A model generated the notes under the pieces. The model searched no databases, was not told the DNA's origin, and saw nothing but the letters and a program-made list of their open reading frames with translations. The position numbers and the translations under genes are program-made. Positions 25,722 to 37,022 of a stretch of DNA of 64,000 nt are shown here, piece after piece; the stretch's first letter is position 1; each line of letters starts with the position of its first letter. The stretch is from assembly GCA_043817315.1 (NCBI GenBank), contig JBDRGY010000016.1, positions 4,863 to 68,862 of the forward strand, read 5' to 3'. Source of the DNA: Patescibacteria group bacterium (lineage in GTDB: Bacteria > Patescibacteriota > Patescibacteriia > JBDRGY01).

Positions 25722-26570
25722 CTATCTCTTTAACTCAATACAATCAAGGGTGTTGGCATATAGACTAGCTTCTTGGCCGACAACGGTATTCCAGCCCAAC
25801 TGGACTGTGTGATCACCGGACTCTACTTCAAAAATGGCCGAGGTAGTTAGGGTAACGAAACCGTTTCCCCCGCCATTGGTCTGTTTTCGGGCGGTCCTGT
25901 CAATAATCTCATCATCTAGCAGTATCGCTATGGTAATTGCCTGGTCTTCAGCGTCCACTGTCCCATAACCACTAAAAATGCAGAAGAGGTTGCTCTCTCC
26001 GGTGGTAATGTCCAGTTCAGCAGCAATATCGTAGTCGCCACCCGATTCAGTAGTCGTTTGGGTCTGAGTCTGTGAATCTTCAACGGCCTGGGTAACTGCC
26101 CCACCGAGAATCTTGGCTGTGGTAACGGCATCATCAGCTAAATCAGCCGTGGCGATCGTCCCGTCATCAATTTTGGCTGTGGTAACGGCATCATCAGCTA
26201 AATTAGTTGTGTCAATCACCCCGGTTGAGGCCAAGGAACCGATCGTTAAAGACCCCGTCACCTCCATATTGTCATTGACAATAAACGGCATGGTGTCTGC
26301 TGTCCCAGCCGTAGCTCCTCTAAAAACTCGGCCGTCAATTCGCACGTTATCGCCAAAGGTAACCGGGTTATCAGCATCACCAGCCGCAGTTGTTTCATTG
26401 ACGATAGTTCCATTAAAGAAAGTGACTCCGCCAACTCCCTGCTGCCCAATCCTGATGGAGTCAAAAGGAACCGTCCCTTCTCCGGTAAAACTGGCGGCAT
26501 AAACAATGCCAACACAGGTAATCAGGGAAACGCCAGTTACTGCTATTGAGTAGAGAATTTTCTTTTTCAT
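25722..26570 (-). CDS. Secreted repeat protein (paralog 2)
   Basis: Same N-terminal domain and repeat type as 24686..25657. Its own upstream TGaTATAAT -10 and GC hairpin are conserved with the paralog. Confidence 0.6.
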   Translation of the reverse strand: MKKKILYSIAVTGVSLITCVGIVYAASFTGEGTVPFDSIRIGQQGVGGVTFFNGTIVNETTAAGDADNPVTFGDNVRIDGRVFRGATAGTADTMPFIVNDNMEVTGSLTIGSLASTGVIDTTNLADDAVTTAKIDDGTIATADLADDAVTTAKILGGAVTQAVEDSQTQTQTTTESGGDYDIAAELDITTGESNLFCIFSGYGTVDAEDQAITIAILLDDEIIDRTARKQTNGGGNGFVTLTTSAIFEVESGDHTVQLGWNTVVGQEASLYANTLDCIELKR

Positions 26571-27233: not shown

Positions 27234-27382
27234 TACTACCTCCCGTCCGAGTGGGACATAATATCAGTGACCTATTTGCCAAAGAACGTTATATCTTCTT
27301 ATCAAAACCTCCTTTATTTGTCAATAAAAAATGACCCTGTCAAAAACAGTGACAGGGTCTTGTCGCAAGACAGTTCTTCCCC

Positions 27383-27715
27383 CTATTCAGAAGGAGGTTC
27401 TACCAGGTCAAGCCCACAGATGTGACCACACAGCTCATGGGAAAAACCTGGGACTGGAACACTCTGCCGGCCGGGAATCACCACGAAGGTGCGTTCCTCT
27501 TGGCTGGAACCGAAACCATGCTGGGCTGAATGAGCGATTCTGTCTCGAGTTGTCTGATCGGCGGTGAAACCACCACCCTCTATCCAACCGTGCAACTTCC
27601 TGGCCTGGAAAGCGCCGGCATCCTGAGAAAAGGTAACAGCGATCCCTCTGTCATTCCTCATGGCCTCTCTGAGGGTTTGCTGCACCTCAACTCGGCCAAA
27701 GAACCTCTGGGGCAT
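27383..27715 (-). CDS. Small hypothetical protein with HExxH zinc-metallopeptidase-like motif
   Basis: 110 aa. FSHELCGHICGLD near the C-terminus. GC-rich. Confidence 0.3.
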   Translation of the reverse strand: MPQRFFGRVEVQQTLREAMRNDRGIAVTFSQDAGAFQARKLHGWIEGGGFTADQTTRDRIAHSAQHGFGSSQEERTFVVIPGRQSVPVPGFSHELCGHICGLDLVEPPSE

Positions 27716-27826
27716 AGACTACCTCCTTTTGGAGAAGAACTGTGACTTCAAGGAACAGATAGTAAAAAAATGATAACAAGGATATGGCCGACTGTCAATA
27801 ATATATAACCAAGTTATTCTACTCTG

Positions 27827-27899
27827 CTCCCCCGGGTGGTCTCGAACCACCACTCTTCGCATTAACAGTGCGATGTTTTACCAATTAAACTACAGGGGA
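27827..27899 (-). tRNA. tRNA-Asn (anticodon GUU), copy 1 (AT-rich, host-like)
   Basis: tcccctg-ta-gttt-aattggta-aaac...tcgca-ctGTTaa-tgcga...ggtgg-ttcgaga-ccacc-cggggga-g. Layout matches bacterial tRNA-Asn. Confidence 0.8.
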
Positions 27900-29477: not shown

Positions 29478-31253
29478 CTAGTTACTGGCCTGTTTCAGCT
29501 TGGTAACCCGGGCTGGCTTTTCTGTCAGCAGGCGCATTCGCTCCTGGACAGCGTCGTGGTGATTCAAGGGTTGATTCTCCTTGAAGACAGCAGCCACGGC
29601 CTCAATCAGGTTGTCGTCATGCACCCCAGTGGGCTGGCCACCAGCAGCCTTGTCTCGCTTGATAGCTAGACGGGCTGCCCGGTCGACAATCCCCTTGATC
29701 ATGGCGCCACTAACCAGATGACCTAAGGTGAAAGTCTCTGTCCGTTTTCCCTTGCTGTCATCATCTGGCAGCATCTCGATCCGGTAAAGACCATACTCCT
29801 CAGCAAATAGCCGATTGACTGCGATCTCCACCAGGCGATCAACGGTCAGGCCTTCGGCCAAGGGCAACTGCCCCAAGTAGAGTCGGAAGATAGCAGCAGC
29901 GGCTTCCCGATCGGGCCTGCCTACGTAGAGCTTGAGATCACAACGGCCGTCGCGAGTAACAGCGGGATCCAGGACATCAGGCCGATTGGTAGCCACCAAC
30001 ACTATGGCGCTACTCTCCTTCATGCCTGACATCTCAGCCAAGAACATGGGCACAATAGTATCGCGCACATCTGAGCTGACTCCCTCACCCCGCTTGGGCA
30101 GAATAGCCTCGGCTTCGTCGATGAATATCACTACAGGCAGGCCGTACCTTTTCTTGTAGTACTCGGCTCGCAGGAACAGACGGCGAATCCGGCCTTCAGC
30201 AGTTCCAACCCACTTCTCCAGGATCTCCGGACCCTTGACGTAAATGAAGCCAACCGGAATACTCCTGTCTTTGGCCAGACGAACGATCTCCGTGGCCAAA
30301 GCCTTGCCCAACATGGTCTTGCCACAACCCGGGGGACCGATTAGGGCAGCTCCGACGATCGGCTTCTGACCGTAGTGAGCATAGAGCTCTGGTTCGTCCA
30401 AGTGGCCGACTACCGCTTCCCGCAACGTCTCTTTGATCTCGTCCAGGCCAGCAATGTCTTCCCAAGTGACGTCAGTTTCATCGGTTAGAGTCAGGAAGGA
30501 TTCTTCCTCCCCCAAGCAGTCAACAATCACTGTAGCTGAGGAATCAATAATCACCCGGAAACCAACTTCGATTTCACCGGTAAACTGGCCGGCCAGGATC
30601 ATTCTGCGGGCACCATGAAAATCGATCTCACAACGGTCATCATCAACCACTCGCTGAACTGTGACGATTTCTCCGTAGTCTTCTAGACCAACAACGCCTA
30701 GGATCTGAGAAGTGCTGCGGCTCAGTTTGACCGTATCTCCGGGCTTGATCTCCAGGTCTTTCGGATATTCAACCTCCAGACGCTGGCTACTGATAGCCAC
30801 TACAACCTTTCGCTGGTTGATGGCAATCAGTTCGATCTCGCGATCTGGGTTTGTCATTTCAGCTATACCTACGCCGAAATACTCAGACGAACCATCGGCA
30901 AAGCCAACAAGGACTTCGCCATTGTCGTCAACATCTCCGAAAACATAGCCAGGCTGACCGACCAGCTGCTCATTGTGGCAGCTGGCAGTGATACGGACCA
31001 GAGTACCATAAGGCAGGTCGGTATAGTCAACTTCTACCTCAGATTCAGTCGGTTCCAGAATAGCAATAGCTACTCCGTAAGCTACTGGCTGAGAAAACAG
31101 CTGCAATACCCGACGAGCCATCTCCTGAACCTTGACTCTGGCTCTCATTCGGCCTCGTCGGCTACTGTGTCTGCCGGTCAGGATTTCTTCCTCTTCTGGA
31201 CCGGGAAAGGCGTCCATAAAATCTCTAATCGGATCATTAGAATTACCCACCAC
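29478..31253 (-). CDS. AAA+ ATPase with N-terminal tandem OB/beta-barrel-like domains (ARC/PAN/Mpa-like architecture), GC-rich
   Basis: Walker A GPPGCGKT. Walker B VIFIDEAEA. Second region of homology and sensor residues. About 280-aa non-ATPase N-terminus. GTG start with GGAGG RBS. Confidence 0.8.
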   Translation of the reverse strand: MVGNSNDPIRDFMDAFPGPEEEEILTGRHSSRRGRMRARVKVQEMARRVLQLFSQPVAYGVAIAILEPTESEVEVDYTDLPYGTLVRITASCHNEQLVGQPGYVFGDVDDNGEVLVGFADGSSEYFGVGIAEMTNPDREIELIAINQRKVVVAISSQRLEVEYPKDLEIKPGDTVKLSRSTSQILGVVGLEDYGEIVTVQRVVDDDRCEIDFHGARRMILAGQFTGEIEVGFRVIIDSSATVIVDCLGEEESFLTLTDETDVTWEDIAGLDEIKETLREAVVGHLDEPELYAHYGQKPIVGAALIGPPGCGKTMLGKALATEIVRLAKDRSIPVGFIYVKGPEILEKWVGTAEGRIRRLFLRAEYYKKRYGLPVVIFIDEAEAILPKRGEGVSSDVRDTIVPMFLAEMSGMKESSAIVLVATNRPDVLDPAVTRDGRCDLKLYVGRPDREAAAAIFRLYLGQLPLAEGLTVDRLVEIAVNRLFAEEYGLYRIEMLPDDDSKGKRTETFTLGHLVSGAMIKGIVDRAARLAIKRDKAAGGQPTGVHDDNLIEAVAAVFKENQPLNHHDAVQERMRLLTEKPARVTKLKQASN

Positions 31254-31409
31254 ATCCTCCTTGGCCTTAGGCCTGTTTATTTTCCATTCTCAAAGAACAA
31301 ATCGATTCCCCAAATTATCATAAACCAATGGTGCTGTCAAGCAGGGAGTGGGCAGGAAAAACTGAAGAAAATCTTGTTGGGTTACTAGAAACAATAGGTT
31401 AAATCGAGA

Positions 31410-31428
31410 TCAAGCCCTTAGGGCTTGA
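31410..31428. promoter_or_regulatory. Perfect 8-bp inverted repeat overlapping a TTGACA -35-like hexamer in the divergent promoter region
   Basis: TCAAGCCC-tta-GGGCTTGAca. A/T-rich -10 candidates lie 12-17 nt downstream. Confidence 0.3.
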
Positions 31429-31627
31429 CAAATCTAGATATTTATTATAAGGTAGACCATTCTATTTGGGACGAATTAGCTTCAAATAGAGGGTACTTTG
31501 ACATCTGAATAATCCAAGGAAAAAACGATAAAAACAGAAGAAAATCCCTTAGTTGGGAGGAAGGAGTTCTGATGGATTACTGCCCGTAAGCAACATTGGA
31601 AACACGCACCCGAAAGGAGAAACGAAA

Positions 31628-32281
31628 ATGGCTCCACGACGGAGTTTCAAGGATAGGTTCCTTGACATGGTCATCGAGCGAGAGGATCCGGTCACGCCGG
31701 CTGCTCCTCAGCCCAGACCTGGTTCTACTACATCCACCACACCCATGGTTGTTACACCTTCAAATCCATCAGTCAATCAGGAAATGTTGACAGCCCTGAT
31801 GGACGAGGTGCTCAGGCAGTCAGGATCTGACTACACCGCTTTTCACCAGATCTATGACTCGCTGGATGGAGTACCTGACGAAGCGACTCGCTATCGGGCC
31901 GCCTTCAAGAGTGCAAGTAAGATGGCAGGTCTGACCCGAGAACGCCTGTTGACTGCCCTGAGAAGACGCCCGGCCATCCTGGCCACTGAAATCCAGGAGA
32001 TCGAGGCTACTCTGGGACAGAAAGAGCAGGCCGAAGTCGGCAGTAAGCAATCCGAGATCCAGATGATCGACAGTCAGTTGGCTGAAGATCAGAGACGGAT
32101 CACTGAGATCCAGAGAGATATGACATCTCGCCAGACGCGCCGTACTCAGCTTATGGCCGAGAAGTCTGCGGGTGAAGCCAGCTTGGCTGCATCCAAGGCC
32201 AGAGTCGGGGCTACTGCTACTGCTGCTAAAGCCAAGATCGCAGATGAGTTGCGCAAGGTGGAAGCTTACATCACTACCTGA
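31628..32281 (+). CDS. Hypothetical coiled-coil protein with PspA-like N-terminal amphipathic helix and Pro/Thr-rich linker
   Basis: ATG at 31628 with AAGGAG RBS. N-terminus SFKDRFLDMVIEREDPV resembles the PspA/IM30 start motif (F..RF.D.V...EDP). C-terminal long helices. Confidence 0.5.
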   Translation: MAPRRSFKDRFLDMVIEREDPVTPAAPQPRPGSTTSTTPMVVTPSNPSVNQEMLTALMDEVLRQSGSDYTAFHQIYDSLDGVPDEATRYRAAFKSASKMAGLTRERLLTALRRRPAILATEIQEIEATLGQKEQAEVGSKQSEIQMIDSQLAEDQRRITEIQRDMTSRQTRRTQLMAEKSAGEASLAASKARVGATATAAKAKIADELRKVEAYITT

Positions 32282-32297
32282 AAGGGGGTAAAACCAG

Positions 32298-33359
32298 ATG
32301 GGACCTGATCTTACTAACCCGGGCGATCTTACCGCCAAGGTAAAATCGTTTTGGGAAAGACCAGAGGGTCGCCCTGGAGCTGTTATAGTGGCTCTACTTG
32401 CCGCTGCTGTCGGGGTAGGTTTTCTCAATTTCGTTCTACCTCATCTCCACCTCCTGTTCATGAACCTAACCCGCACTCTCATTTCCGGCACTACGCTGCT
32501 GGTTCTGGCCAAAATCATAACGGCCAAGCGAACCAGAGTTCTGTTCTGGAATATGCTCAAGAGTGTGTCTCGGCTGATCGCCAAGACCTACGCCGAGCTT
32601 GATCCCATTGGGATCATGAGAAACACTCTGGCAGATATGAGGGACCAGTACCGCAACCTGGATAAGCAGGCCGGTATTGTGCGTGGCGTGATGGAAACGC
32701 TGAATGAGTTGATGGAGAAAAGTGCCCGCCAGATGAAGGAATCTCTGGGTTTGCTCAAGCAGGCTCAGAAGCGCCAGATGACATCTCAGCTGGTGCTGCA
32801 AAGCCGTCGAGCGGGTCGCCGGAAGGACAACATTATTACCTTCCAGGAACTCCATCACAAGCTGGAACTGATTCTGCGAGTACTGATCAAGTACATGGAA
32901 GCAGCCAAAGTGCACATTGATGATCTTGAAGACGACATCATGGTGCAGGAACAGAAACGCAAAGGGATGCGGGCTGCTTCTTCAGCAATTCGTTCCGCCA
33001 GAAGCATCTTCGTTACCGATCAGCAGACCGAGCTTTTCAACCTGGCTACCGAAGCCTTGGCTGAAGACTACGGCCGTAAACTGGGAGAGATCAAGCATTT
33101 TGTGGAGATCTCCCAAGGCATGGTCGATGGTATCGATCTGAGAAACGGTAAGCTGGAAGAAGAGGCTCTGGAACTGCTGGAACAGTGGGAGAGCGATCCT
33201 AGCTCTTTCGCCATTCCCGGCATGGAAAAGCAGAGGCTGATTGCCGTGTCCAACGACCCCAATGAAGTCCTGGACATCGACAGTACTCAGCCCGACGTTC
33301 GCAGTATGCCAACAGCATCCGGAAGCAAAGATCAGAAGTGGGATGAGTTTCTGGAGTAG
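32298..33359 (+). CDS. Hypothetical membrane-anchored coiled-coil protein (PspA/IM30- or TelA-like, weak)
   Basis: One N-terminal TM helix then about 250 aa of heptad-like helical sequence beginning AELDPIGIMRNTLADMRDQYRNL (EDP..M...L.DM pattern). Confidence 0.45.
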   Translation: MGPDLTNPGDLTAKVKSFWERPEGRPGAVIVALLAAAVGVGFLNFVLPHLHLLFMNLTRTLISGTTLLVLAKIITAKRTRVLFWNMLKSVSRLIAKTYAELDPIGIMRNTLADMRDQYRNLDKQAGIVRGVMETLNELMEKSARQMKESLGLLKQAQKRQMTSQLVLQSRRAGRRKDNIITFQELHHKLELILRVLIKYMEAAKVHIDDLEDDIMVQEQKRKGMRAASSAIRSARSIFVTDQQTELFNLATEALAEDYGRKLGEIKHFVEISQGMVDGIDLRNGKLEEEALELLEQWESDPSSFAIPGMEKQRLIAVSNDPNEVLDIDSTQPDVRSMPTASGSKDQKWDEFLE

Positions 33360-33413
33360 TTCAGGTACCTGCAGCAAGACATTTGTTGGTTCTACTCAAA
33401 GGAGGGATCGGTT

Positions 33414-34961
33414 ATGCCTCGACTCACCAGAGGTGCTGGGAATTTCCTGTTGGTTATCGCCGTTCTGGCGATAGTCGCAGGTGGATACACGGCAGTTCAG
33501 AGAGGTTGGTTCGGCATCGGTACTAGCAACCAGGCAGCTCCAGCTGGTCCGGTCACGGTAGCTACCGGCGAGACCATTGACCCCATCAATGTCCACGTGG
33601 TCACTTGGTGGGGTTGCGCCGGCGGCGTTCTGGCCAATAACGGATTTTCTCCAAACGAAGACTGCGACTACTACCGTAAGCATAACATTCTGGTCAAGTT
33701 CAACCTGATAGATGTGTTGCCAAACTCATGGGATGCTTGGAAAACCGGAGAAATTGATATTCTCGCCTACACGGCAGAATCTCTGGCTCCGCTTCTCCCT
33801 ATCCTGTGGGACTATGACCCGGTGGTATTCTTCAGTGAAGACAGGTCTCAGGGTGGCGATGTCATTCTGGCCCGCGAAGGCATCAATTCAATGGTTGACC
33901 TTCGTGGCCGTCAGGTAGTTTACTGCCAGGATGCTCCTTCCCAGAGTGTGCTTCTGCATGCTCTGGACGCCGCCAACATGACTCTGGACGACATCATCCC
34001 CATTACGACCGATGATGTCATTCTGGCAGGCAACATGTTTGAAGCCGATCCGGAGATTGCGGCCGCCGCAGTCTGGAGTCCGGAAGATGCCAGAATCATG
34101 GCTGCTGATCCGCGTGTTCATGTCTTGTTCAGTACTAAGGACGCGGATCACATCATCTTCGATGTCATGCTGGTTAAGCGAGACTGGTACGAGGCCAATT
34201 TCGATGAGGTAGTGGCCTTCCTGGAAGGCTGGTTCGGAGGTGTAGCTAGGATCTACAACAACCCAGCCGACAAAAGAAAGGCACTGCAGCTAATGGCTGA
34301 CGGCACAGGCCTCGGCGTAGATTTCTTCAAGGATACGGCTGACGGTTTTCACCTCAATACCTACGGGGATAACGTCAATATCTTCAACCTCAATGGTAAC
34401 TACCAGGGTGTGACCGCCAAGGACGTCTACGAAGAAACCGCTGCACTGTACCAGAGAATTGATCGAGTTGGAAACGATCTTCCCCTCTGGCGCAGAATCT
34501 CTGACACCAAGGCACTCCGTGCTCTTAGTCACCTACGTGGACCTGGCTACGATGCGACAGAAGTATCTCGTTTCTCAAAAGCCGGTCCAGAGAAAAGAAC
34601 TGAGAGAGAGATCACCAGTAAGCCGGTAACTGTCAACTTCGGCTTCGATTCAAATGAGTTGGACGCCAACGCTCGAAACATCATCGATGCCGAATTTGGC
34701 GACCAGGCCCAGATGTTCGGCAACATGTACATCAGAATCGTCGGCAATACCGACAGTGTCGGTGACTACCAGTACAACGTCAGGTTGTCTGAGCAGAGAG
34801 CTCAGGCGGTAGCTGACTATCTGGCTGCCCGTTACCACATTGACCGGTACCGTTTCATTATCATCGGTAACGGACCCAACAACCCGGTGGCCAACAACAA
34901 CACCGATGCTGGCAAAACCAGGAATCGGCGTACTGATTTCGAACTGGTCCGGAGGGACTAG
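33414..34961 (+). CDS. Fusion protein: TM anchor + NMT1/SsuA-like ABC substrate-binding domain + C-terminal OmpA-like peptidoglycan-binding domain
   Basis: N-terminal hydrophobic helix. About 330-aa periplasmic-binding-protein-like region. C-terminal NTDSVGDYQYNVRLSEQRAQAVADYL...RRTDFELV OmpA_C signature. Confidence 0.7.
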   Translation: MPRLTRGAGNFLLVIAVLAIVAGGYTAVQRGWFGIGTSNQAAPAGPVTVATGETIDPINVHVVTWWGCAGGVLANNGFSPNEDCDYYRKHNILVKFNLIDVLPNSWDAWKTGEIDILAYTAESLAPLLPILWDYDPVVFFSEDRSQGGDVILAREGINSMVDLRGRQVVYCQDAPSQSVLLHALDAANMTLDDIIPITTDDVILAGNMFEADPEIAAAAVWSPEDARIMAADPRVHVLFSTKDADHIIFDVMLVKRDWYEANFDEVVAFLEGWFGGVARIYNNPADKRKALQLMADGTGLGVDFFKDTADGFHLNTYGDNVNIFNLNGNYQGVTAKDVYEETAALYQRIDRVGNDLPLWRRISDTKALRALSHLRGPGYDATEVSRFSKAGPEKRTEREITSKPVTVNFGFDSNELDANARNIIDAEFGDQAQMFGNMYIRIVGNTDSVGDYQYNVRLSEQRAQAVADYLAARYHIDRYRFIIIGNGPNNPVANNNTDAGKTRNRRTDFELVRRD

Positions 34962-35041
34962 GTAGGAAATGTTCATTGGGGCAGGCGTCTTCTATCGTCT
35001 GCCCCTGTTTTTTCCTTTCTAGCTAACCAAGAGGGGGAAAG

Positions 35042-35827
35042 ATGCAATTGTTCGAACTGCGCGGATCCCTCCCTAACCGGACTAGGCTGATTCTGCAACT
35101 GGGAGGAATGATCTTCTTTATTACCCTGTGGTGGGCTGTAGTTCAGTATTTTGAGATCAAACCCAGCCTGCTGCCCTCACCAGAAAAGGTGTTGCTGGCT
35201 TTCAAACCACTTTACTTCGAAAGCAACATCCTCTACCACTCCTCTATCTCTATCAAGCTCAATGTCTTGGGCTATCTGGAAGCTGTGGCCATTGCCATAC
35301 CGCTAGGATTTTTAATCGGTTTGTTCCCTTTCTTTCGGGGACTGCTGATGCGATATGTCATTGTCCTGCGCTACTTGCCCCTGACAGCACTCTTGGGCTT
35401 GATGATTCTCTGGTTCGGGATTGGGATCAATATGAAGGTCCAGTTCCTGGCTCTGGGTATCCTGGTCTATCTACTACCGGTAGTAGTCCAGCGAATAGAC
35501 GAGGTCAAAAAGATCTACGTCTACACCGCCCAGACTCTAGGCGCCAGTAAATGGCAGATCATCAAAGCTGTCTTTATCCCCGATGTCATTTCTAGGGTAT
35601 TTGACGACATCCGGGTGCTGGTAGCCATCTCCTGGACTTACATCATCATCACCGAGGTTATAAACCGTAACCAGGGTGGTGTCGGGGCTGTCATCTACGG
35701 AGCCCAGCGTCGCGGTAAGTTGGATGAGGCTTTTGCTGGCCTAATAGTCATCATCCTGATCGGCTTTCTGCAAGATCGGTTGATGGTATTCTTTGACCGT
35801 CGGTTCTTCCGGCACAAATACGTCTAG
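35042..35827 (+). CDS. ABC transporter permease (NitT/TauT/SsuC family)
   Basis: 6 TM. Binding-protein-dependent transport inner-membrane component pattern. Confidence 0.8.
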   Translation: MQLFELRGSLPNRTRLILQLGGMIFFITLWWAVVQYFEIKPSLLPSPEKVLLAFKPLYFESNILYHSSISIKLNVLGYLEAVAIAIPLGFLIGLFPFFRGLLMRYVIVLRYLPLTALLGLMILWFGIGINMKVQFLALGILVYLLPVVVQRIDEVKKIYVYTAQTLGASKWQIIKAVFIPDVISRVFDDIRVLVAISWTYIIITEVINRNQGGVGAVIYGAQRRGKLDEAFAGLIVIILIGFLQDRLMVFFDRRFFRHKYV

Positions 35828-35836
35828 GGGGTGGGC

Positions 35837-36652
35837 ATGGCAGACTCAAATACGACCCGTGTCGCCTTTCCCAACACCGAGCTGCCGGATGTTATCGATC
35901 TACGTAAAATCGGGATGATCTATGACGGACGGGTGGAGGTTCTAAAAGACTTCGACCTACTAATCGAGGATAAACCCGGACAAGGTCAGTTCGTGGTCAT
36001 CCTCGGCATGTCAGGTTGTGGCAAATCCACCGTTTTGCGGATCATCGCCGGTATACAGGAACCGACAGCCGGTGAGGTGTTCATCTATGGACATCCCAGA
36101 AAGGAAGTTGAACCAACTAGTATGGTGTTCCAAAGCTTTCCCTGCTATCCCTGGGCCACCGTACTAGAAAATGTCCGCCTAGGTCTGGACTTTAAGGGAA
36201 TTCCCCGGTATGAAGGCAATGAAAAGGCCCAGGAAATGATCGAGATGGTCGGACTAGGAGGGCACGAGCGTAAGCTGCCTGCCGAACTGTCCGGTGGACA
36301 GCAACAGCGAGTGGCAATTGCCAGGAGCTTAGTCTTCAACCCCAAGCTGCTGCTGATGGATGAGCCGTTTGGCGCCCTAGATACCTACACTAGGGGGAAA
36401 ATGCAGCAGCAATTAGAAGAGCTGTGGGAAAGGCTACAATGCACAGTCATCTTTGTCACCCATGACATCCAGGAAGCGGTTTTCTTGGGAGATGACATCT
36501 ACGTGATGGAAAGGCACCCCGGCTTTATCTGTCACCACTTCCCGGTTCCGCTGGGTTTCCATCGGGATCGGTCCACCAAGCATGGTGCTGAGTTTGTTAA
36601 GTTGGTCAATGATGTCGATGACTTCATTCACGACATGGCAGCTCACGACTAG
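35837..36652 (+). CDS. ABC transporter ATP-binding protein (NitT/TauT/SsuB family)
   Basis: [36 protein letters not shown]. Alternative GTG start at 35831. Confidence 0.88.
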
Positions 36653-36875: not shown

Positions 36876-36949
36876 CTCCTCGACTCCGCTCGGAGTCCTG
36901 CGGGACAGACAGCCAGGGAATTAATATCTTTTTACCCAAGAGCGCATTG

Positions 36950-37022
36950 CTCCGCGAGTCGGACTCGAACCGACGACCCACTGGTTAACAGCCAGTTGCT
37001 CTACCAACTGAGCTATCGCGGA
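36950..37022 (-). tRNA. tRNA-Asn (anticodon GUU), copy 2 (GC-rich, sequence distinct from copy 1)
   Basis: tccgcga-ta-gctc-agttggtag-agc...actgg-ctGTTaa-ccagt...gtcgg-ttcgagt-ccgac-tcgcgga-g. Confidence 0.8.

Follow-up and report, generated by a model that had tools for sequence, protein, structure and literature searches.

In a 64,000-nucleotide stretch of DNA from a Patescibacteria group bacterium (contig JBDRGY010000016.1; hereafter designated the window), we found a 7.2-kb GC-rich unit of six genes at 29478-36652 (hereafter the island), in which a gene for an AAA+ ATPase stands beside a five-gene cassette on the plus strand. The cassette begins with two open reading frames (ORFs), ORF2 and ORF3, which are separated by 16 nucleotides and encode a cytoplasmic coiled-coil protein and a membrane-anchored protein with a predicted PspA/Vipp1-like fold, respectively, and it continues with genes for a solute-binding protein (SBP) and for the permease and ATPase of an ATP-binding cassette (ABC) importer. 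The island is best explained as one horizontally acquired six-gene module. Our reading of it, to which we give somewhat better than an even chance, is that ORF3 is the polymer of an imported membrane-remodelling system, with ORF2 as its partner, the AAA+ protein as its turnover motor, and the importer coupled to them. An earlier note on this DNA, made from the letters alone, had described the AAA+ gene and the two divergent coiled-coil genes as a possible membrane-remodelling module at 29478-33359; the three ORFs and their divergent arrangement were confirmed, whereas the extent given was too short, as the plus-strand operon continues to 36652. The membrane-remodelling interpretation itself is supported by the analysis reported here.

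ORF3 belongs to a family whose alignment displays an invariant N-terminal KSFWERPEG motif, two transmembrane (TM) helices, a nearly invariant LDPIGI sequence, and long helices. In the AlphaFold 2 (AF2) model calculated with this family alignment, the TM helices (residues 24-55 and 57-75) are followed by helices alpha1 (103-158), alpha2/3 (162-239), and alpha4 (241-299), with a predicted local distance difference test (pLDDT) score of 77 overall and of 97-98 across the hairpin (residues 103-239). The predicted model thus has the ESCRT-III core fold, that is, a long alpha1-alpha2/3 hairpin and then alpha4/alpha5. When the model was compared with PDB structures by Foldseek, ranks 1-12 were all occupied by Vipp1 or PspA (probability, 0.89-1.00), with target-normalised TM-scores of up to 0.67 among the top eight, and E. 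coli PspA (4WHE) appeared further down the list. An hhalign comparison of the ORF3 family with a PspA/Vipp1 alignment of six sequences (PDB-verified and plasmid-annotated PspA proteins) gave a probability of 76.9% with 38 relatives and 80.5% with 120 (E, about 1e-5), aligning ORF3 residues 101-240 to PspA residues 23-155, so that the D-P motif of the family falls on E-D-P of PspA and the invariant Arg170 and Ala172 fall on its AR.A motif. Sub-threshold matches to the Pfam model PspA_IM30 (PF04012) were obtained for 7 of 38 family members and share one register (ORF3-family residues 95-231 to model positions 21-150 in one instance), the best of them having an E-value of 0.0023 and 16.5 bits against a cutoff of 33.9. 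Collectively, the suggestion of the earlier note that the membrane-anchored protein is PspA/ESCRT-III-like held up: its membership in the ESCRT-III superfamily is probable on the strength of the predicted model and no more than suggestive when judged by sequence.

As in PspA, Vipp1 (IM30), and LiaH, the predicted hairpin of ORF3 begins at a D-P motif and has an AR.A motif at the start of alpha2, and the protein may play a similar role at the inner-membrane face; it differs from them in that the amphipathic helix alpha0 is not present and is replaced by the TM hairpin, in that the Pfam gathering threshold is not reached, and in that the island contains no PspB, PspC, or Toastrack genes. No canonical PspA gene was found in the island either. 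The hairpin domain is presumably cytoplasmic because of the positive-inside distribution of charges after the second TM helix. Behind the helices, a disordered tail carries a conserved VLD(I/L)D sequence and a terminal aromatic-acidic-hydrophobic motif (here KWDEFLE), and these motifs would sit, by analogy, where ESCRT-III proteins carry their partner-binding (MIM) motifs. In E. coli, PspA likewise has an AAA+ partner, PspF, which is an NtrC-type transcription activator inhibited by PspA and not an unfoldase. A precedent for membrane-anchored PspA proteins is found on the Nostoc sp. MS1 plasmid pNSMS104 (NZ_AP023445.1, 13311-14432), where a protein annotated as a PspA/IM30 family member has, in place of the N-terminal amphipathic helix, a long Gly/Ala-rich hydrophobic region that is probably membrane-embedded. 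The NCBI annotation of ORF3 (P0121, 323 aa) begins 30 codons downstream of the ATG at 32298 (window 32298-32390); the longer start is almost certainly correct, since the shorter one removes the KSFWERPEG motif, of which F18 and E23 are family-invariant.

ORF2 consists of a basic amphipathic N-terminal helix, an acidic patch, a Pro/Ala/Thr linker, a small four-helix domain, and a helix of about 100 residues. Both the amphipathic N-terminal motif and the small helical domain recur in its relatives, the latter reading SDYxxF...PDEATRYRAAF here and ...GFDYxEF...MDExTRYxSA... in the family consensus. The homologs were taken from the genes neighbouring ORF3 relatives, as a direct protein homology search returned the query alone. 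The N-terminus had been likened to the start helix of PspA in the earlier note; its amphipathic character is conserved, whereas the PspA relationship was rejected, as the hhalign probability was only 11.8%, over 13 columns, and the matches in Pfam, in PDB profile searches, and in Foldseek were all generic coiled coils. The single-sequence AF2 model of ORF2 showed no hairpin and gave no Foldseek match below an E-value of 0.36. As for the translation start, an alternative TTG at 31553 was discarded in favour of the ATG at 31628, which has a GGAG ribosome-binding site (RBS) and agrees with the NCBI call (P0159).

The AAA+ protein has an NCBI counterpart of 100% identity, annotated as coming from a "Patescibacteria group bacterium"; our assignment places its start at GTG 31253 (591 aa), that of NCBI at ATG 31217 (579 aa). 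It contains one Pfam AAA domain (residues 304-445; E, 6.9e-31). An N-terminal helix and putative beta-barrel domains (about residues 1-262) precede the single classical AAA module, and a helical domain stands at the C-terminus. Walker A (GPPGCGKT), Walker B (DE), the pore loop (KWVG), and the arginine fingers are intact and invariant in the alignment of relatives. The proteasome-ATPase model TIGR03689 matched the protein from end to end (residues 39-588 to model positions 28-510 of 512) with 295.4 bits, which is below the equivalog cutoff of 504.75, and the strongest PDB matches were the D2 domains of Cdc48/VAT and Mpa (5kwa_A, residues 167-584). In the alignment, the N-terminal region of about 260 residues begins with a helix, which is followed by the conserved Pro56 and by beta-rich sequence read as barrels, among them an extra small barrel whose copy number varies among relatives. 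The counterpart of this region in TIGR03689 is the coiled-coil/OB part, and the region is collinear also with Mpa 5kwa. A few homologs carry OB or KOW Pfam matches, including PF16450 in P0009 and P0088, and a profile of the N-domain only, searched against PDB sequences, matched no solved OB domain. The ARC/PAN/Mpa architecture proposed in the earlier note is accordingly retained as regards the single AAA module and the collinearity with TIGR03689, on which the putative tandem OB-like barrels also rest.

The likeness to Mpa/ARC and PAN comprises a helix, a proline, putative beta-barrels, and one AAA module in collinear order, and the differences comprise the sub-cutoff score, the extra small barrel, and the C-terminus. 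This ends in ...VTKLKQASN (family consensus, KLRQ plus about three residues) and has neither the HbYX nor the GQYL proteasome-docking motif, as had been noticed before. Furthermore, the gene is flanked by genes for membrane and transport proteins instead of those for Pup, Dop, PafA, or 20S subunits. The module is therefore not a Pup-proteasome system, given the score below the cutoff, the missing docking motif, and the unrelated neighbours. Nor is the protein a Vps4 ortholog, since it has no MIT domain match in Pfam; of the profile families that had been suggested for comparison, ARC matched over the full length, though below its cutoff, whereas the CdvC model NF041006 covered only the AAA module (residues 252-477) with 121.5 bits against a cutoff of 650.

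The link between this ATPase and the cassette became apparent from the distribution of its N-domain. An exhaustive HMMER search with residues 1-262 against 1.84 billion cluster representatives (50% identity) returned only seven at E<=1e-30, which define the subclade considered here; a protein 83% identical to the window AAA+ (P0002, locus L088) was not counted as an independent cluster. Two metagenome scans, with the N-domain alignment and with the degenerate pattern GEI[VA][TV]V.RV[VI][DN], found no further members, all 58 matches to the pattern being due to chance. Co-occurrence of the three genes elsewhere had been set beforehand as a test, and all five subclade members with readable context adjoin the cassette. 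The AAA+ gene diverges from ORF2-ORF3-SBP-permease-ATPase in the window and in L088 (P0001 and P0002; GC of the window overall, 0.43), precedes ORF2, ORF3, and the SBP gene in L091 (P0003; GC, 0.61), precedes ORF2 at a contig end in L093 (P0004; GC, 0.42), follows the complete ORF2-ORF3-SBP/OmpA-permease-ATPase cassette and is itself followed by a Band_7 gene in L158 (P0161; GC, 0.42), and follows the permease and ATPase genes in L160 (P0162; GC, 0.59). In addition, on a Bacteroidota-like contig, the five-gene cassette is followed by a 516-residue AAA+ protein of the SpoVK/CbbX/EccA type (L096, 13354-14904; L097, 13300-14850), whose start overlaps the preceding stop codon, indicating translational coupling, and whose N-domain resembles TerB; here the cassette has recruited another ATPase, unrelated to that of the subclade. 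The retention of the neighbourhood through repeated rearrangement, together with the recruitment of a second ATPase type, argues for a functional link between AAA+ protein and cassette. A partial gene upstream of ORF2 in another locus (L095) was considered and found not to be an AAA+ C-terminus.

These data also bear on the possibility that the AAA+ protein is the general ARC-like unfoldase of its host, acting on unrelated substrates and adjoining the cassette only through co-transfer of the island. ARC-like AAA+ proteins are very common in the Candidate Phyla Radiation (CPR), with 7207 matches at E<=1e-20, their mainstream members occur in other contexts, most genomes bearing ORF3 have no AAA+ neighbour, and the AAA+ gene in the window has an opposite orientation and a promoter-like box of its own. 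However, co-transfer alone sits poorly with an adjacency that recurs in 5/5 examined members despite three gene orders and host GC contents from 0.41 to 0.61; moreover, it is precisely the substrate-recognition N-domain that sets the subclade apart, and this domain has diverged together with ORF2 in a sister strain. We therefore regard a general unfoldase as rather improbable.

Three mainstream CPR ARC-like AAA+ genes (L092, L156, and L157) had no cassette nearby. They share a conserved neighbourhood of another kind (L156, 6001-13995; L157, 6001-13100; and L092), in which a small ORF overlaps the start of the AAA+ gene and which also holds either a DUF1360 gene or small ORFs, regulators of the HTH_36 and HTH_3 types, and a serine recombinase; restriction-modification genes lie near the block in L157, and the block in L156 adjoins dnaG. 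This neighbourhood looks like an integrative element. Among the subclade loci, Band_7 (SPFH/flotillin-like) genes adjoin the AAA+ gene upstream in L091 (1054-2118, 354 aa) and downstream in L158 (8212-10932, 906 aa), and no Band_7 gene lies near it in the window; Band-7 proteins are known as neighbours of PspA (PMC11237479).

The sister locus L088 offers a further comparison. Across MTAP, APRT, and the whole ATPase module of the AAA+ gene, its nucleotide identity to the window is 99-100%, until it falls to 50-75% at about 30430-30520 (residues about 245-275), where the N-domain meets the ATPase domain; beyond this point, N-domain, intergenic region, and ORF2 all remain at low identity. Because the divergence begins at the domain boundary, the recognition domain and its putative client appear to have been exchanged together, while the motor was kept. 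Judging from this comparison, the recognition domain of the AAA+ protein co-varies with ORF2.

The ORF2-ORF3 pair itself is far more widespread. The ORF3 family occurs in at least 550 GTDB species representatives, mostly Saprospiraceae and Lewinellaceae, including the cultured Flavilitoribacter nigricans DSM 23189 and Neolewinella litorea, and also in Calditrichota, a Geobacter bin, and Paceibacterota; relatives from Polyangiaceae (Myxococcota) were returned by protein search. Gene neighbourhoods were counted at 83 ORF3 loci, mostly from Saprospiraceae and Myxococcota, and at fewer where the flank was too short. Of the 80 loci with sufficient upstream flank, 62 carry a relative of ORF2 directly in front of ORF3 (66 of 83 when detected by hidden Markov model), and an SBP-OmpA gene stands directly behind ORF3 in 40 of 71, often with permease and ATPase genes next. 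The permease is kept in the cassettes of L001, L007, L014, L017, L029, L044, L096, L158, and L160. In the window, the SBP is extracytoplasmic and of the NMT1/SsuA/TauA-like type, with a signal anchor at the N-terminus and an OmpA-like domain for peptidoglycan binding at the C-terminus (Pfam OmpA at residues 409-505, E 9e-17; NMT1 at 150-285).

Given these neighbours, ORF2 and ORF3 could instead be a scaffold or regulator of the ABC importer, gating or positioning it beneath the wall-anchored SBP, with the AAA+ protein as an assembly or quality-control chaperone of the transporter complex. The most widespread association of the pair is indeed with the SBP-OmpA, permease, and ATPase genes and not with the AAA+ gene, the invariant KSFWERPEG motif and TM hairpin of ORF3 would fit an intramembrane partner, and the similarity of ORF2 is to generic coiled coils only. 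Nevertheless, no SBP-OmpA gene stands directly downstream in 31 of the 71 loci with enough flank, which makes the ORF2-ORF3 pair the core unit, and the best structural matches of ORF3 are Vipp1 and PspA rather than transporter accessory proteins. Type I importers have no known requirement for such partners. An accessory role at the importer thus seems unlikely to us, though it is the strongest competitor of the membrane-remodelling reading.

The features of the island are summarized in Table 1. It is a compositional island, because its genes (AAA+ and cassette) have a GC content of 0.50-0.57, compared with 0.39-0.40 in the adjacent APRT and MTAP genes and 43% in the window overall. Nearly all other genes of the window are carried on the minus strand. 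The island lies between APRT/MTAP and a tRNA-Asn gene (36949-37022, minus strand), which stands beyond the island end and after rpoD and dnaG.

Table 1. Coordinates of the island features in the window and the evidence for each
Feature	Position	Strand	Basis
AAA+ ATPase, ARC/Mpa-like, 591 aa	29478..31253	-	from GTG 31253; Pfam AAA, TIGR03689, and PDB matches
AAA+ N-terminal (substrate-recognition) domain	30468..31253	-	N-domain HMMER search; drop of identity in L088
Divergent intergenic region	31254..31627		palindrome and two TTGACA boxes
ORF2, cytoplasmic coiled-coil partner, 217 aa	31628..32281	+	GGAG RBS; NCBI protein P0159
ORF3, membrane-anchored, PspA/Vipp1-like predicted fold, 353 aa	32298..33359	+	alignment, AF2 model, Foldseek, hhalign
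Solute-binding protein with OmpA domain	33414..34961	+	Pfam OmpA and NMT1; NCBIfam
ABC importer permease, BPD_transp_1; TauC/SsuC/SaoP-like	35042..35827	+	Pfam and family matches
ABC importer ATPase, TauB/SaoA/PhnT2-like; last island gene	35831..36652	+	Pfam and family matches

An imported, GC-deviant island beside a tRNA gene might also serve in stress or anti-phage defence, with the AAA+ protein and the membrane proteins as an abortive-infection effector. Mainstream relatives of the AAA+ protein do occur in mobile-element-like neighbourhoods with serine recombinases and restriction-modification genes, and PADLOC gave weak AAA matches to IetA and TRIP13. These matches, however, reflect generic P-loop, AAA, and OmpA similarities, with none for ORF3 or the permease; the cassette is a stable chromosomal feature in hundreds of Bacteroidota and Myxococcota species; and no nuclease, toxin, or sensor domain was found in the island. 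We consider a defence function very improbable, far more so than either of the other alternatives.

The island, together with MTAP and APRT, is bracketed by two tRNA-Asn(GTT) genes on one strand (27826-27899 and 36949-37022), which lie 9 kb from each other and clearly differ in sequence; the idea that they represent duplicated att sites was rejected because of this difference. Beside a tRNA-Asn gene, a gene-poor, GC-rich segment (27240-27825) folds much better than shuffled sequence (z = -4.5) and, when checked as a possible non-coding RNA, gave no Rfam match; it contains an ORF for 110 aa (27383-27715, minus strand) with an AAGGAGG RBS, a strong downstream terminator hairpin, and no Pfam match. 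At 25722-26570, a secreted protein of 282 residues with tandem repeats of the 'DDAVTTAKI / DGTIATADL' type and no Pfam match may be a surface protein.

The divergent intergenic region contains a 19-nucleotide palindrome, TCAAGCCCT-T-AGGGCTTGA, at 31410-31428, which is real and unlikely by chance for its length. A shared palindromic region had been pointed out in the earlier note; L088, the relative of 83% identity, keeps only the arm that overlaps a TTGACA box and not the palindrome as a whole, so that a shared operator for the AAA+ gene and ORF2 is not supported. This box belongs to TTGACA-N15-TATAAG (31425-31451, plus strand), facing ORF2, and a second one, TTGACA-N15-GATAAT (31340-31314, minus strand), faces the AAA+ gene. 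Both TTGACA blocks are conserved in L088/L089. Each combines a perfect TTGACA with an unusually short spacer of 15 nucleotides before a -10-like hexamer, a pattern kept in the sister strain, and a consensus promoter scan of the divergent region at spacings of 16-18 nucleotides detected nothing. Two independent promoter-like boxes are a plausible interpretation of this region.

From these parts, we infer the following working scheme for the membrane-remodelling module. ORF3 would most likely polymerise on the cytoplasmic face of the membrane, as do other members of the superfamily, and ORF2 would either co-assemble with the ORF3 polymer or regulate it through its amphipathic helix and coiled coil. 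A hexamer of the AAA+ protein would recognise ORF2 or ORF3 through its specialised N-domain and thread the subunits through its pore with ATP, extracting or unfolding them and thereby turning over the polymer, as Vps4 does for ESCRT-III. The peptidoglycan-tethered ABC importer would couple this maintenance or remodelling of the membrane to the uptake of a small solute at the wall-membrane interface, the importer being of a taurine-, sulfonate-, or phosphonate-type transporter family.

Several observations count against this scheme. As regards ORF3, the Foldseek E-values are only 5e-3 to 0.12, the window protein has no Pfam match at E<=0.1, an HMM search with the family profile against PDB sequences returned generic coiled coils only, and the sequence evidence for ESCRT-III homology stays below every curated threshold. 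In the hhalign comparison, reversed-alignment controls reached probabilities of 27-54% (27-42% in the run that gave 80.5%), so that much of the score comes from coiled-coil periodicity, whereas column-shuffled controls did not exceed 2.5%; a PspA alignment of two sequences, too thin as a template, gave a probability of 2%. The model of ORF2 is a single-sequence one of modest quality. As regards the linkage, the AAA+ gene in the window is divergently transcribed and not co-transcribed with the cassette, and no classical AAA+ gene lies within 10 kb in any of the 83 ORF3 loci (0/83); in most lineages, then, the ORF2-ORF3 pair functions with no such ATPase gene next to it. Taken by themselves, these loci would make the AAA+ gene a bystander, a picture that the distribution of its N-domain reverses. 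Finally, no experimental work on such operons was found in the literature.

The pairing of an AAA+ protein with a PspA-like one, regarded as noteworthy in the earlier note, does recur; as a novelty it does not stand, as it has already been published as a prediction. By comparative genomics, Ravi et al. (2024, mSystems, PMC11237479) described operons of 'SIG+TM+Snf7', 'Rmar_0091-Coiled-coil', PspA, PBPB+OmpA, ABC permease and ATPase, and AAA+ proteins, with exemplars from Cand. Handelsmanbacteria (OGG56892.1), Archangium (AKJ06548.1), and Salinibacter (CBH24266.1), and proposed an ATP-dependent membrane remodelling comparable to that by Snf7/Vps4 and linked to solute transport. The window, L158, and L091 hold the same component types, with the coiled-coil gene directly upstream of that for the TM protein, and the proposed function is the same; the equivalence with the published exemplars rests on matching architecture and neighbourhood. 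The systems differ in that the published AAA+ protein combines an inactive and an active AAA module, whereas that of the window has a single module behind an N-domain of a helix and putative beta-barrels, and in that the island has no canonical PspA and another gene order. Three findings are new here: an AAA+ subclade of the ARC type, rare as it is, is tied to the cassette wherever it was examined, the module is mobile, and the N-domain co-varies with ORF2.

Compared with the ESCRT-III/Vps4 systems (CdvB/CdvC and Snf7-CHMP/Vps4), the island likewise couples genetically a protein of predicted ESCRT-III fold to a classical-clade AAA+ protein with a threading pore loop, and the short conserved motifs in the ORF3 tail would lie at the position of MIM motifs. 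It differs in that the AAA+ protein lacks an MIT domain, in that ORF3 is membrane-integral through its two TM helices and not peripherally recruited, and in that the closest fold matches of ORF3 are PspA/Vipp1 and not CHMP proteins. A more far-reaching proposal, which we put forward tentatively and think somewhat more doubtful than credible, is that a membrane-integral ESCRT-III-like polymer acquired, without any involvement of Vps4, a rare ARC/Mpa-type AAA+ lineage as its dedicated ATP-driven motor for disassembly, and that polymer and motor move between phyla in one cassette together with the importer. If true, this would be a convergently evolved bacterial ESCRT-III/AAA+ machine at the wall-membrane interface, and it would explain the active turnover of bacterial polymers of the ESCRT-III type.

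The kinship of PspA and Vipp1 with ESCRT-III was recognised in 2021. According to a 2025 review, a Vps4-like ATPase "appears absent in bacteria" (PMC7619361), which leaves open how the bacterial polymers of the superfamily are disassembled. The island provides a compact test case for this question, with six genes, at least five independent contexts, and an AAA+ protein with a cassette-specific substrate-recognition domain, and, since the cassette also occurs without the ATPase in the cultured Bacteroidota named above, genetics and biochemistry are feasible. If the proposed mechanism is true, archaea and eukaryotes would not be alone in having ATP-driven turnover of ESCRT-III polymers, and membrane remodelling would have a link to a transporter.

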